From: an uncultured Gemmatimonadaceae bacterium | Lineage (GTDB): Bacteria > Gemmatimonadota > Gemmatimonadetes > Gemmatimonadales > Gemmatimonadaceae | Reading direction: 5' to 3' | NCBI GenBank assembly: GCA_963751275.1 | Contig: CAVVTZ010000009.1 | Location: 320,001 to 384,000 of the forward strand | Length of the DNA stretch: 64,000 nucleotides | Shown: piece by piece, positions 69-64,000 of the stretch | Layout: each line of letters begins with the position of its first letter | Numbering within the stretch: position 1 is the first letter of the stretch | Notes under the pieces: model-generated | The model's database searches: none | The model's input: only the letters and a program-made list of their open reading frames with translations | What the model was told of the DNA's origin: nothing | Program-made: the position numbers and the translations under genes

Positions 69-196
69 CAACGAACTGCTTTTGACAGGATGCACATGAT
101 GAAGAACAAGAGCGGGATGAACGGCCTGACCACGCTCAGGCCGTTCATCCCGCTCTTGTTCTTCATCATGTGCATCCTGTCAAAAGCAGTTCGTTG
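69..196. repeat. Long perfect inverted repeat, family A
   Basis: 61-bp perfect arms (69-129 / 136-196) with 6-nt loop ccacgc. Contains AACTGCTTTTGACAGGATGCACATGATG. Confidence 0.97.
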
Positions 197-199
197 CTG

Positions 200-1204
200 T
201 TAATGCCACCGATAGCCGAGCCCAATACCAAAGAAATCCGTATTCTCGTTATAGGTGGTGACCGTCCGATTCCAAATGAATCGCGCCAGCCAGTGGTCGC
301 CGATGTCGTAGGCGACGGTGGGCGAGACGAGGCCGGCGACGGCGTCCTTTCCCTTGGTGCCGGGGGGCGGTGTGTACTTCTGGTCCACCGCGAAGAACGC
401 GCCGAAGCCCAGCGCGAGTGAGACGGGGCCGAACTTCCGGGTGGGCCAGATCTGGACGCCGAGTCCATTGCGGACGATCACGGCGTTGTCGCCCTGGTAG
501 ATGTAGCTGAAGGTCAGGTCGAAATACTTCCAGACGCCGTGGCGGTATTCCGCCATGCCGGCGACGCCCTTGGGGTCGGCGGAGCCGCCGTTGGGGACCG
601 TCTGGCCGATCATCGCGGTGACCTGATTGCCGGTGGTGAAGGCGGTCTGCTCGACGGGCTTGTACTTGTAGACGTCGCCGTTCTGCGGCTGGAGTTGATA
701 GCCGATGCCGATGAGCACGCTGAGCGCGTCGAAGGTCTTGGGCGGCGCGATCTCCTCGTTCACCTGCATGCGAAAGATCCAGCGGTCCTTGCCGTAGTAC
801 GACATTTGGAGCGAGGAGAGCCAGAGCCAGCCCTGCACATTGGAGAAATCGCCGGCGTTGGAGGAATCGGCGGTCGTGTCGTAGAAGCGGTCGACCCCGG
901 TGGCGAATCCGAAGACGAATCGCTTGGTGCCGAAGGCGGAGCGGATGCCGAGCTGGGCGGCGATGCCGTCGCGCGCGTGGCCGGGGATGTGGCCGTCGTT
1001 CACCCAGCCGGTCTCGAAGTACCAGTGCTGGTCGATCCCCTGTTGGTAGTCGAGCCGCCACTGGTAGGTGGGCTTGGAATTGAACGACTGGTCGAACTGG
1101 GTGCCGATGAAACCGGTGAATTCCTGGGCCGTGGCGGGCGGGCCGGCGGCGATCAGCAGGGCCGCGGCGAGGGGCCCGCTCCAGAGGGGGAAGGATCGAC
1201 GCAT
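200..1204 (-). CDS. Putative outer-membrane beta-barrel protein
   Basis: Signal peptide (ATA-Q), alternating aromatic/Gly beta-strands, C-terminal GLGYRWH beta-signal. ATG at 1204. Confidence 0.7.
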   Translation of the reverse strand: MRRSFPLWSGPLAAALLIAAGPPATAQEFTGFIGTQFDQSFNSKPTYQWRLDYQQGIDQHWYFETGWVNDGHIPGHARDGIAAQLGIRSAFGTKRFVFGFATGVDRFYDTTADSSNAGDFSNVQGWLWLSSLQMSYYGKDRWIFRMQVNEEIAPPKTFDALSVLIGIGYQLQPQNGDVYKYKPVEQTAFTTGNQVTAMIGQTVPNGGSADPKGVAGMAEYRHGVWKYFDLTFSYIYQGDNAVIVRNGLGVQIWPTRKFGPVSLALGFGAFFAVDQKYTPPPGTKGKDAVAGLVSPTVAYDIGDHWLARFIWNRTVTTYNENTDFFGIGLGYRWH

Positions 1205-1329
1205 GACACGCAATCTGGGTCGAAGAATGCCTCTCGGGAAGGCGGTCGTTGCCCTTCGGTTGACCCCTCCCGGAGGTTATATTTCGTGGTCCTGAGATCG
1301 GTGTTTTCGCCCCGTCCAGCCCCATCAAA

Positions 1330-3849
1330 ATGACCGCACCGAACAACCGAGAACGGATCCTCTCGCGCCTGATCGACGACGAGATCAAGGAGTCGTTCAT
1401 CAATTACTCGATGAGCGTCATCGTCTCGCGCGCGCTGCCGGATGTGCGCGACGGGCTCAAGCCGGTGCACCGGCGCGTGCTCTACGCGATGAACGAGCTC
1501 GGGCTCGTGCCCGGGCGTCCGTACAAGAAGTCGGCGACGGTGGTCGGCGACGTGCTCGGCAAGTACCACCCGCACGGCGACTCGAGCGTGTACGACGCGC
1601 TCGTGCGCATGGTGCAGGACTTTCTCGCTGCGCTATCCGCTGGTCGATGGCCAGGGGAACTTCGGGTCGATCGACGGCGACCCGGCGGCGGCGTACCGGT
1701 ACACCGAGGCGCGGCTCACGCCGATGGCGATGGAGATGCTCGCCGACATCGACAAGAACACGGTCGATTTCGCCCCGAACTTCGACGACCGCCTGCAGGA
1801 GCCGACGGTGCTGCCCAGCGGGATCCCGAACCTGCTGGTGAACGGGAGCTCGGGGATCGCGGTGGGCATGGCGACGAACATCCCGCCGCACAACCTGCGC
1901 GAAGTGATCGCGGCGGTGGTGCATCTGATCGAGAAGCCCGACGCGACGCCCGCCGAGCTGCGCAAGCACATCAAGGGCCCCGATTTCCCCACCGGCGGCT
2001 ACATCTACGGCCGCGAGGGGATTCGCAGACTACCAGGAGACCGGCCGCGGCAAGATCATCATGCGCGCGCGGGCGGTGATCGAGGAGAACGAGCGCGGCA
2101 GCAAGTCGCAGATCGTGGTCACCGAGATCCCGTACCAGGTGACAACCGGCGCGGCTCAAGACGCAGATCGCGGAGCTGTGCGCGACAAGAAGCTCGAGGG
2201 CATCTCCGACCTGCGCGACGAGTCGGACCGCGACGGCATGCGCGTCGTGATCGAGCTCAAGCGCGATGCGATCCCGCGCGTGGTGCTGAACCAGCTGTAC
2301 AAGCACACGCCGATGCAGGCGACGTTCGGCGTCATCATGCTCGCGCTGGTGCCCGATCCGAACACGCGCCAGCTGGTGCCGAAGGTGATGCCGCTGAAGG
2401 AGGTGCTCGAGCACTTCATCGAGCACCGCCACGAGGTGATCGTCGCGCCGCACGCAGTTCGATCTCGACAAGGCGCAGGAGCGCGAGCACATCCTCGAGG
2501 GGCTCAAGATCGCGGTCGACAACATCGACGCGGTGATCAAGCTCATCCGCGGCGCCAAGACACACCGAGGCGGCGAGCGAGAAGCTGCAGACGCGCTTCA
2601 AGCTCTCGCGAGCGGCAGGCGGAAGGCGATCCTCGAACATGCGGCTCGCGAAGCTCACCGGCCTCGAGATCGAGAAGCTGGAGGCGGAGCTCAAGGAAGT
2701 GCGGCGCCGATGATCAAGGAGCTGAAGTCGATCCTCGGCTCGAAGCCGAGCGCCGCATGAAGATCATGAAGGGCGAGCTCGAGGCGCTGGCCGAGAAGTT
2801 CGGCGACGAGCGGCGCACCGAGATCACGAGCGACGAGGGCGAGTTCACGATCGAGGACCTGATCGCCGAGGAGGACATGGTCGTCACCATGTCGCACTCG
2901 GGCTACATCAAGCGCACCTCGGTGACCGACCTACCGGCGGCAGCGGCGCGGCGGACAGGGGGCTGAACGGGCCAGGCGCTCAAGGATGAGGATTTCATCG
3001 AGCATCTGTTCATCGCCTCGACGCACGACTACATCCTCTTCTTCACCAGCGACGGCCGGTGCTTCTGGCTCAAGGTGCACGAGATCCCGCAGGCGGGGCC
3101 GCGCGGCGAAGGGCAAGCCGGTCGTCAACCTGATCAACGTCGAGCCGGACACGAGCATCGCGGCGATGGTGCCGGTGCGCGAGTTCGCGGAGACGGAATT
3201 CCTGCTGTTCGCGACGAAGCAGGGCACGGTGAAGAAGACGGCGCTCTCGCAGTACTCGAACGTGCGCGCGACCGGCATCAAGGCGATCAAGATCGAGGAC
3301 GGCGACGAGCTGATCGACGTGCAGGTGACGAGCGGCACGAACGACATCGTGCTCGCGACCACGCACGGATTGTCGATCCGCTTCCACGAGAGCGACGTGC
3401 GCGAGATGGGCCGCGACACGACCGGCGTGAAGGGCATCGAGCTGTCGAAGGGCGACGTGGTGAACGGGATGGTGGTGGTGCGCCGCGACGCGACGCTGCT
3501 GGTGGTCACGTCGAAGGGGCTCGGCAAGTGCTCGCCGATCGACGAGTACCGCGTGCAGAAGCGCGGCGGCAAGGGGATCATCACGCTCAACCGCACGGAC
3601 AAGACGGGCGACGTGGTGGCGCTGAAGGAAGTGCTCGCCGGCGATGAGCTGATGCTGATCACGCAGCACGGCGTGATCATCCGGATGCCGGTGAAGGGGA
3701 TCCGCGTGAGCGGGCGCAACACGCAGGGAGTGCGGCTGGTGGAGCTGCATTCCGGCGACGTGGTGCGCGACGTGGCGCGGGTGGTGCCGGACGAGGAAGG
3801 AGAGATGGCGCCGGGGGCGGAAGAGCCGGTCGAGGCGACGGAGGACTGA
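1330..3849 (+). CDS. gyrA: DNA gyrase subunit A (split by several apparent sequencing frameshifts)
   Basis: [42 protein letters not shown] and pinwheel repeats (QKRGGKG, GRNTQGV) spread over successive frames. Confidence 0.96.
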
Positions 3850-62948: not shown

Positions 62949-62951
62949 GCG

Positions 62952-63869
62952 CTAGGAACCTATGGTCGCCGGGTCGGTCTGCGTGAGGAAGCGGCGGAGC
63001 GCCGCGAACAGCGCATCCGCGGCTTCAACGTAAGGCACATGGCCGCTCCCGTCGAGAACCTCGAGACGGGCGTGCGGCATGATCGACGCCGCGAGGCGGC
63101 TGGATTCGAGCGGGATCGGGTCCTCGCGGCCGTGCACGATGAGCACGGGGCAGCGGACGAGCTTGAGCGCGTCGCGAATGTCGTAGTCATCGAGACTGTC
63201 CCACACCGACTTCTGCACGCGGCCCGTCACGCGGAACGGGGTCAGCTCGCGCGCGCGCGCCGGATCGGCGAAGTAGCCGGCGACACTGATCTCGAACAGC
63301 CGCTGGCGGTACGACGCGGGGTCGCGGTCGCGGAGCCCGGTTGCGACCACCTGTGCGCGCAGCTGCTCCACTGCGCCGCCGGCCTGCCGCTCGGCGAGCT
63401 CGACTTCGAAATCCTCACGGAATTCCCGCGTGATCGGCGCGGGCGACATGAGTACCATGCGGCGAGGCGCGAGCGATGCGGCGGGGAGCGGCGGATCGCC
63501 GCCGCCGTTCGAGGCGATCGCGTAGAGCATCGCGAGCAGCCCGCCCCAGGAATAACCGATGATCGACGGCGCGCCCGCGATGAGCTCGTGCGCGACGAGC
63601 GCGAGGTCCAGCACCTGCGTGCGCCAGGTGACCGCTCCGGGGCCATCGTACTTGGACCGTCCGCCGCCGCGCTGGTCGTAGAAGACGAGCTCGTAGTCAT
63701 GCGCGAGCTCGAGCATCTGCGGCAGCATGTAGTCGTGATGCGCGCCGGGTCCGCCGTGGAGCAGGAGGAGCTGCGGCGCGCCGGGCGGGCCGTACTTCGC
63801 CCAATACAGCGGGAGCGACGTGGACTTCGTGAAGCCGGACTCGCGCGGTGGCGGGATCTCGTTGGGCAC
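62952..63869 (-). CDS. Alpha/beta hydrolase (proline iminopeptidase-like)
   Basis: LHGGPG, YDQRGGG.S, GYSWGG, GRED, SGH. Confidence 0.92.
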   Translation of the reverse strand: MPNEIPPPRESGFTKSTSLPLYWAKYGPPGAPQLLLLHGGPGAHHDYMLPQMLELAHDYELVFYDQRGGGRSKYDGPGAVTWRTQVLDLALVAHELIAGAPSIIGYSWGGLLAMLYAIASNGGGDPPLPAASLAPRRMVLMSPAPITREFREDFEVELAERQAGGAVEQLRAQVVATGLRDRDPASYRQRLFEISVAGYFADPARARELTPFRVTGRVQKSVWDSLDDYDIRDALKLVRCPVLIVHGREDPIPLESSRLAASIMPHARLEVLDGSGHVPYVEAADALFAALRRFLTQTDPATIGS

Positions 63870-63930
63870 GCGGAACAATCGGGCCGCAGCGCGAGGGGGT
63901 CAAGTACGAAATACCGTTGACGGCAGACGT

Positions 63931-64000
63931 CGACTGGCGAATGGCGACTGACGCCCGCTACTGCAACGCGACCGCAACGGCGACGGTGTTGCGGTGGATC
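63931..64000. repeat. Heptamer run plus small hairpin, probably a repeat element cut by the window edge
   Basis: CGACTGG CGAATGG CGACTGA; hairpin ACCGCAAC / GTTGCGGT at 63971-63995. Confidence 0.45.

Follow-up and report, generated by a model that had tools for sequence, protein, structure and literature searches.

What are the long palindromes that fill so many gaps between the genes of an uncultured Gemmatimonadaceae bacterium, and what governs their placement when no gene able to move them is in sight? The question is raised by a stretch of 64,000 nucleotides (G000:C9:320001-384000, hereafter the window) of the assembly G000, which has 3.1 Mb, is 83% complete and contains about 68% G+C. 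The initial annotation had placed 14 inverted-repeat elements in it, and all of them are recovered in place, each ranking within the window's top 25 inverted repeats by length; the tandem units of 7, 8-9, 13, 14 and 21 nucleotides (nt) that it had described were detected within them as well. All 14 sit between ordinary genes, and the nine window hairpins that were folded gave z values from -6.3 to -23.2, with none of 200 shuffles equally good in any case. In agreement with the annotated lack of a mobilising gene, a Pfam scan of the 67 open reading frames of the window found no transposase, no gene of a four-helix bundle protein (4HB; S23p/Avd fold, TIGR02436, PF05635) and no GxxExxY gene (TIGR04256). 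The answer that we put forward is that these elements belong to multi-copy arm families and contain no gene themselves, each family being paired with its own protein, as the annotation had supposed, and that they sit in enduring intergenic slots which hold different content in related species.

The de novo scan of G000 revealed 302 short hairpin loci, which fell into 14 multi-member groups and five singletons; contig C9 held 109 loci, as compared with none in two shuffles. The scan with arm sequences gave 368 two-arm and 219 one-arm copies, making up 2.1% of the genome. Nearly all elements (295 of 301) are located outside called genes. By gene calls made within this analysis, hairpins are present in 111 of the 349 gaps between convergent genes, in 55 of the 350 between divergent genes and in 193 of the 2125 between tandem genes; of 190 elements in the tandem gaps, 165 are closer to the upstream stop (median 12 bp) than to the next start. 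An outer motif, AAC[AGT][AG]C, is common to the families (42% of ends versus 7% in the background), and the tags of repetitive extragenic palindromic (REP) sequences are not enriched at the ends (GTAG 0.16 versus 0.15 in the background; CGTC 0.20 versus 0.32). Clusters composed of two clades are rare (15 of 587). The amplification of hairpins is special to this genus: their density is 12-18 per 100 kb in four genus genomes and 0-1.7 in samples from seven other genomes, with none in 440 kb of G007. The single hairpin of G014 resembles an arm of a G014 cassette. As to the stop codons, TAA is commoner beside elements (90/345 versus 359/2838) and often overlaps the AAC end motif.

For every family of the window, in G000 or in a congener, the arms also enclose a partner gene, namely GxxExxY for family A and 4HB for families B-H. 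These were the partners that the initial annotation had named, and correctly so; its other candidates for an enclosed gene, the REP-associated tyrosine transposase (RAYT)/Y1 and DUF559, did not turn up in the genus genomes that were scanned (for Y1/RAYT, PF01797, no match in six genus genomes that are 63-89% complete). PF05635 is represented in G000 by six genes plus a split seventh, and GxxExxY by three. Inverted arms flank 33 of the 36 4HB loci in the six genus genomes, the three misses being cut by contig ends, and six of six further 4HB loci of the genus have enclosing arms. The arm families of these cassettes are G, P, I, E, H and C in G000, where the six cassettes are positioned between protein-coding genes, and B, D, F, K and M in congeners. 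Conversely, all inward arm pairs with both arms at at least 45 bits enclose 4HB or GxxExxY, except two pairs of family L. Among 12 GxxExxY loci (two loci that are the second halves of split genes are left out of this tally), four lie within A arms, six have a hairpin of family J upstream only, and two near contig ends have neither. In other genera arms were detected at 25 of 30 4HB loci versus none of 29 control windows, and across phyla at 61 of 75 (five of 80 loci were dropped for short flanks). The protein clades track the arm families, so that each arm family pairs with a protein clade, and the partner genes are under purifying selection (dN/dS 0.02-0.37 across 17 pairs).

The predicted model of the G partner (pLDDT 97) resembles 2GSC (Xcc0516) with a TM score of 0.96 and Avd (4DWL) with a TM score of 0.83, the NCBIfam Avd score being about 21 bits at a cut-off of 80. 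S23p is described as homologous to Avd (PMC10053308). GxxExxY falls within a Pfam family of the PD-(D/E)XK type (PDDEXK_3). In a second subtype of GxxExxY a complete J hairpin stands upstream of the gene in place of enclosing arms (G000:C12:51958-52664; L068, L069, L072, L073, L074). At the loci L176, L177 and L178, in three other genera, there is a 4HB subfamily without arms, perhaps a domesticated copy. Near L219, L258 and L280 extra arm copies occur less than 10 kb from the 4HB cassette (at 4, 3 and 7 places), which suggests similar amplification in other lineages.

The behaviour of the slots was followed by comparison with orthologous gaps of the relative G005. Among 100 G000 elements on C9, 30 face an element of the same family and 33 an element of another family; the remainder face a short gap (12) or nothing detectable (5) or are not comparable (20). 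Starting from G005, 30 of the 33 comparable non-matching elements have the gap filled in G000 by another family (background 151/413; p = 1e-10). Twenty-two of these 30 swaps are within a partner clade and eight are cross-clade, five of the latter being without detectable similarity. In the window, such swaps are exemplified by B versus its sister family Bx at 3857 and 30135, by D versus F arms around the same stem at 11229, and by an F hairpin with a leftover D arm at 14806, while the element at 57302 has no counterpart in G005. The slots endure and it is the resident family that turns over, in most cases to one whose partner belongs to the same protein clade; copies rarely take new sites. The non-autonomous mobile system proposed initially is thus supported as regards gene-less paired families and not supported as regards free mobility to new sites, since most sites are shared and the family changes in place. 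No clean empty site or target duplication was seen by eye in the printed filled/empty pairs of G000 and G005, including 11 pairs at 85% flank identity, where old duplications may have decayed; most of the gap differs in these pairs. Contigs from four DNA sequencing runs came from relatives, and none of them span hairpins.

Whole cassettes are also exchanged and inverted at fixed slots. In five genomes one slot (slot 1) is filled by cassettes of the types G, G, M, M-like and K; a second slot holds P, D, D and F, a third one I, I, I and Bx, and a fourth one three E cassettes and two of other types. Gene identity is 57% and 65% at the first two slots, where the flanks share 91-96%, and for slot 1 a single clade of its four intact proteins was rejected by the tree test (17 proteins, p-AU 0.004). 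Inversion was found at three slots, and some genomes have more than one cassette of B, K and A. Hairpin variants partly follow the cassette present. P hairpins were found solely in G000, the carrier of the P cassette; the Cx cassette query gave 96 matches in G004 and 93 in G005, both of which carry the Cx cassette, and five in G000, and the Bx query gave 100 in G005 and three in G000 (these are match counts, not copy numbers). G002, with 80 mostly weaker matches to the Cx query, is an exception.

The sequences of the arms and flanks bear on whether the elements act as DNA or as RNA. Stem mismatches on the sense strand comprise 165 G-T and 156 A-C, without an excess of G-U. In family A the closest match of an arm is its own mirror arm in 42 of 52 elements, and in B and C this is so for only 1 of 18 and 6 of 29, the remainder being closer to other copies (the element scan favours good mirrors). 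This suggests local fold-back copying in family A and copying in trans in families B and C. A perfect family A palindrome at G000:C9:228763-228890 extends into the end of the upstream gene, itself a sign of local fold-back copying.

Furthermore, the flanking genes are skewed in base composition. At fourfold degenerate sites C/(C+G) is 0.33 versus a background of 0.46 on the strand running toward the hairpin, fading over 120-200 bp, and 0.69 versus 0.54 on the strand running away, where it fades only partly. For the 4HB families the values are 0.31 versus 0.43 in convergent tails, 0.33 versus 0.46 in tandem tails, 0.65 versus 0.51 in tandem heads and 0.63 versus 0.53 in divergent heads (per-gene p from 5e-4 to 4e-12 over the four contexts). 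Hence C is lost in a strand-symmetric manner beside 4HB-family hairpins, whatever the gene direction. The skew is not significant for family A and is reversed in J tails (0.60-0.61); with all families pooled, the shift of divergent heads relative to the gene body is not significant (p = 0.69). Gene tails beside hairpins are also less conserved (78% versus 84% identity). The family specificity of the skew, its presence in all four contexts and the greater divergence of tails fit a DNA-level process centred on the element. Mimicry of arm composition was rejected as a source of the skew (rho 0.05 across 14 families). The control with G007 orthologues went in the expected direction and was underpowered (0.40 versus 0.25, 10 genes, p = 0.23). 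Counted per flank beside 4HB cassettes, the skew was negative in 43 of 84 cases in other phyla (p = 0.15, not significant) and in 18 of 26 in records titled Gemmatimonadota (p = 0.006).

Since the relatives keep hairpins in the same gaps, often with another family in them, the partner genes likely direct the overwriting of fixed sites. The reading that we favour, and to which we give an even chance of being right, is protein-directed overwriting of fixed slots by hairpins of the partner's own family. The partner proteins would act in trans: each would recognise its own arm in a folded DNA strand, and this recognition would likely lead to replacement of the resident hairpin by a copy of the partner's own family. 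A pentamer of 4HB may serve as the specificity and binding factor and not as the enzyme, the cut being made by the GxxExxY nuclease or by a structure-specific nuclease of the host. Host repair synthesis could then copy a sister hairpin or a cassette arm in the 4HB families and fold back on the other arm in family A, and the host would tolerate the slots or use them as transcript-end stems. A bolder version, which we advance tentatively and hold to be rather unlikely as a whole, is that S23p/Avd-like 4HB pentamers are sequence-specific readers of tandem-unit DNA hairpins which drive a novel form of selfish overwrite-in-place replication without an HUH transposase or a reverse transcriptase. In one genome more than a dozen protein-arm pairs would then compete for fixed slots, and the genes next to these would bear a strand-specific scar of mutation over about 100-200 bp.

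Several facts, however, weigh against protein-directed overwriting. We know of no catalytic site or role for 4HB. Its homologue Avd is placed about 40 Å from the active site of the partner enzyme (10.1101/2023.10.23.563531). No junction with a precise cut was seen, and the polarised substitutions near hairpins (25 C>G and 47 G>C) do not reveal an ongoing loss of C. Higher C/G downstream of REPs has been described in E. coli and read as Rho sites (PMC6061677). Cassettes were not found in G000 (83% complete) for its own hairpin families B, D, F, K and M, nor in G002 (63% complete) for Bx, in spite of 78 Bx matches there, and the E hairpins of G000 are matched better by the E cassettes of G002 and G005 than by its own (115 versus 77-93 bits). 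For families L, N and O we detected no partner gene. Finally, cassettes exist without amplification: G007, with five 4HB matches, has no hairpins in 440 kb, and G020 none in 80 kb. Families L, N and O are represented by G000:C9:120480-120828, C9:219458-219577 and C9:258787-258940, and the L elements, of about 330 bp, are built differently.

The alternative that survives best is a regulon with passive conversion, in which the protein binds the arms in RNA and acts at transcript ends, cassettes pass between lineages through ordinary recombination of flanks, and host gene conversion together with selection aligns the hairpins with them. The location of hairpins at the 3' ends of genes (convergent 111/349 versus tandem 193/2125 gaps, a median of 12 bp from the stop) agrees with this, as do the binding of an RNA stem-loop by all five subunits reported for Avd (10.1101/2023.10.23.563531) and the 22 of 30 swaps within a clade, where partial homology exists. 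Against it stand the lack of G-U excess on the sense strand, the eight cross-clade swaps, five of them between elements without detectable similarity, and the 55 of 350 occupied divergent gaps. We regard this regulon as unlikely.

Rather improbable, in our opinion, is that the hairpins are plain host terminators, that is, two-way stems protecting Rho-terminated transcripts, the skew being a selected Rho loading site and inert cassettes being the source from which gene conversion spreads the arms neutrally. All of the group possesses Rho, a C>G skew has been described downstream of REPs in E. coli (PMC6061677), and plain stems in tandem gaps are accompanied by a weak shift in the same direction (n = 32-34, without a significance test). 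Yet the skew extends to tandem tails (p = 4e-12) and to divergent heads (p = 5e-4), at which it would serve antisense transcripts alone, it is absent as a significant effect from A and reversed in J, and the cassette genes are under purifying selection. As for Rho itself, G000 has two Rho-like genes (C9:106815-107879 and C9:524704-525950), and a second, lower-scoring match occurs in most relatives searched. Amplification through a genus-specific loss of SbcD-like, MutS or Rho is not supported, as matches occur both in and outside the genus. The group tallies for these proteins, for Y1 and for reverse transcriptase include an unpublished genome, G012, on which no claim rests.

Retrohoming of the kind known from diversity-generating retroelements, with an Avd-like ring presenting the arm RNA to a reverse transcriptase whose cDNA replaces the resident hairpin, seems very improbable: the predicted model does match Avd (4DWL, TM 0.83), and some Cx copies begin just after the cassette stop codon (matches from query position 757-758), but the six genus genomes, 63-89% complete, gave no match to RVT_1 (PF00078). 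Least credible of all are classical transposition to new sites by an unseen transposase, in the manner of miniature inverted-repeat transposable elements (MITEs) or REPINs, for which 12 of 80 comparable G000 elements facing short gaps in G005 would speak and against which stand the lack of Y1 matches in the six genomes and of any visible target duplication, and an assembly artefact, for which the many split genes (gyrA, leuS, cox1) would speak and which is refuted by the different, imperfect arms present at the same gaps in three other assemblies, a pattern not expected of fold-back chimeras.

The features of the window are listed in Table 1.

Table 1. Hairpins and arm remnants of the window, numbered from its first nucleotide.
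Position	Strand	Feature	Same gap in relatives	Partner
66..199	.	family A hairpin, 8-9-nt units, near-perfect palindrome		GxxExxY
3846..4050		family B hairpin, 21-nt units, at gyrA stop	B in G004; sister family Bx in G002/G005	
7665..7857		family C hairpin	C in G002; sister family Cx in G004/G005	
11229..11345		family D arms around terminator-like stem	same stem with F-type arms in G002, G004, G005	
11874..11957		family D hairpin	G004: D arm just before right flank, left flank aligned too poorly for clean comparison	
14806..14895		family D hairpin	F hairpin plus part or all of right D arm	
16100..16170		terminator-like stem, one decayed 7-nt-unit arm	F-type arm	
17910..18050		family A hairpin	E-type element in G004; A element in G005	
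19274..19542		family E hairpin	also in G002, G004, G005	
21259..21284		family K one-arm relic	not in G002, G004 or G005	
30135..30296		family B hairpin	B in G004; Bx in G002/G005	
34813..34899		family A hairpin, opposite arm polarity	other genes in gap	
39273..39393		family F hairpin	also in three relatives, number of left arms varies	
46185..46302		family G hairpin		4HB at G000:C9:82629-82985
57289..57471		family H hairpin	also in G002, G004; missing from G005	4HB on G000:C10
61064..61190		family G hairpin		
63924..63958		family P one-arm relic		4HB at G000:C9:147316-147700

The division into families needs some amendment. Eight sequence-unrelated families had been proposed, and this does not hold for C and H, both of which are linked by sequence to a third family, nor at the level of partner proteins, where B, C and H share one clade and D and F another. 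The copy at 34813 does belong to family A, with its arms in opposite polarity to those at 69 and 17910. The partial runs at 21259 and 63931 turned out to be relics of two families beyond the eight, and that at 16106 a stem with a single arm. The Rfam search of the window gave only sub-threshold microRNA hairpin matches and no rRNA match. Several window genes, namely gyrA (1330-3849), cox1 (23102-24971), leuS (32357-34797) and kup (40174-42166), are split over several frames, likely by assembly indels, and therefore frameshifts in G000, in partner genes too, may stem from errors of sequencing. Between the H hairpin and the second G hairpin (window 57659-61021) there is one run of a PolX/PHP-like gene, endonuclease III and an EVE-domain gene.

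In general, 4HB/S23p and GxxExxY, both widespread families of proteins without a known function, gain concrete candidate substrates, and within a single genus more than a dozen protein-arm pairs, cognate and non-cognate, are available as a natural matrix. The rRNA intervening sequences and the Avd fold become linked to dispersed tandem-unit hairpins. Should the skew be of mutational origin, these elements would be shaping how the ends of hundreds of host genes evolve. The findings also suggest more than one origin, with unrelated proteins, for repeat populations of the REPIN type and their overwriting.

As to the known systems, the core sites of integron attC are RYYYAAC and GTTRRRY, and our hairpins are similar to attC in standing just after stop codons and in often having AAC...GTT near their ends. 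Identity with attC was nevertheless rejected, because no more than 13 of the 382 ends with AAC contain RYYYAAC, and the genes on either side belong to the host and are syntenic; G000 does have three tyrosine recombinases. From MITEs of DDE insertion sequences they differ in the absence of target-site duplications visible by eye in filled/empty pairs. Avd shares the fold of 4HB (TM 0.83) and is described as a pentameric stem-loop binder in a system that rewrites a fixed site (10.1101/2023.10.23.563531); the difference from diversity-generating retroelements lies in the reverse transcriptase (PF00078, 0 of 6 genus genomes), pairs of template and variable repeats (TR/VR) not having been searched. 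Closer still in content are the ORF-bearing intervening sequences of 23S rRNA genes, where a protein of the S23p/4HB family is reported inside terminal inverted repeats, their mobility being described as unexplained (PMC4990558). The present cassettes differ in lying between protein-coding genes and not inside an rRNA gene, and in having many clades per genome together with hundreds of gene-less sister hairpins.

The most extensive likeness is that to REPIN-RAYT systems and TIRtrons, which share with our hairpins the hundreds of intergenic inverted-repeat doublets in several populations per genome, the stationary partner gene flanked by its own repeat, with a clade per repeat type, and the retention of sites while the repeat type changes. 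RAYTs are described as stationary and flanked by their own repeat (10.1101/2021.07.10.451892), REPINs at fixed positions as changing with the RAYT present, and mixed REPIN types in 13 of 20 fully conserved spaces have been read as overwriting (10.1101/2024.10.14.618302); TIRtrons are reported to have long arms and to keep the HUH enzyme (PMC3733652). The differences are that the partners here are 4HB and GxxExxY and not HUH tyrosine transposases, that the arms are arrays of tandem units and not 20-40-bp palindromes with GTAG or CGTC tags, and that partner cassettes are swapped and inverted at fixed slots. In the open-access literature searched we found no published link of 4HB or GxxExxY genes to dispersed hairpins, and the hairpins form a real and large system that is apparently unpublished; the multi-family pairing, the statistics of overwriting and the family-specific skew are contributed by this analysis. 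Because neither a Y1 enzyme nor REP tags were found, it is not a member of the REPIN-RAYT systems, and judging by the likenesses above it seems to work as they do, overwriting included.

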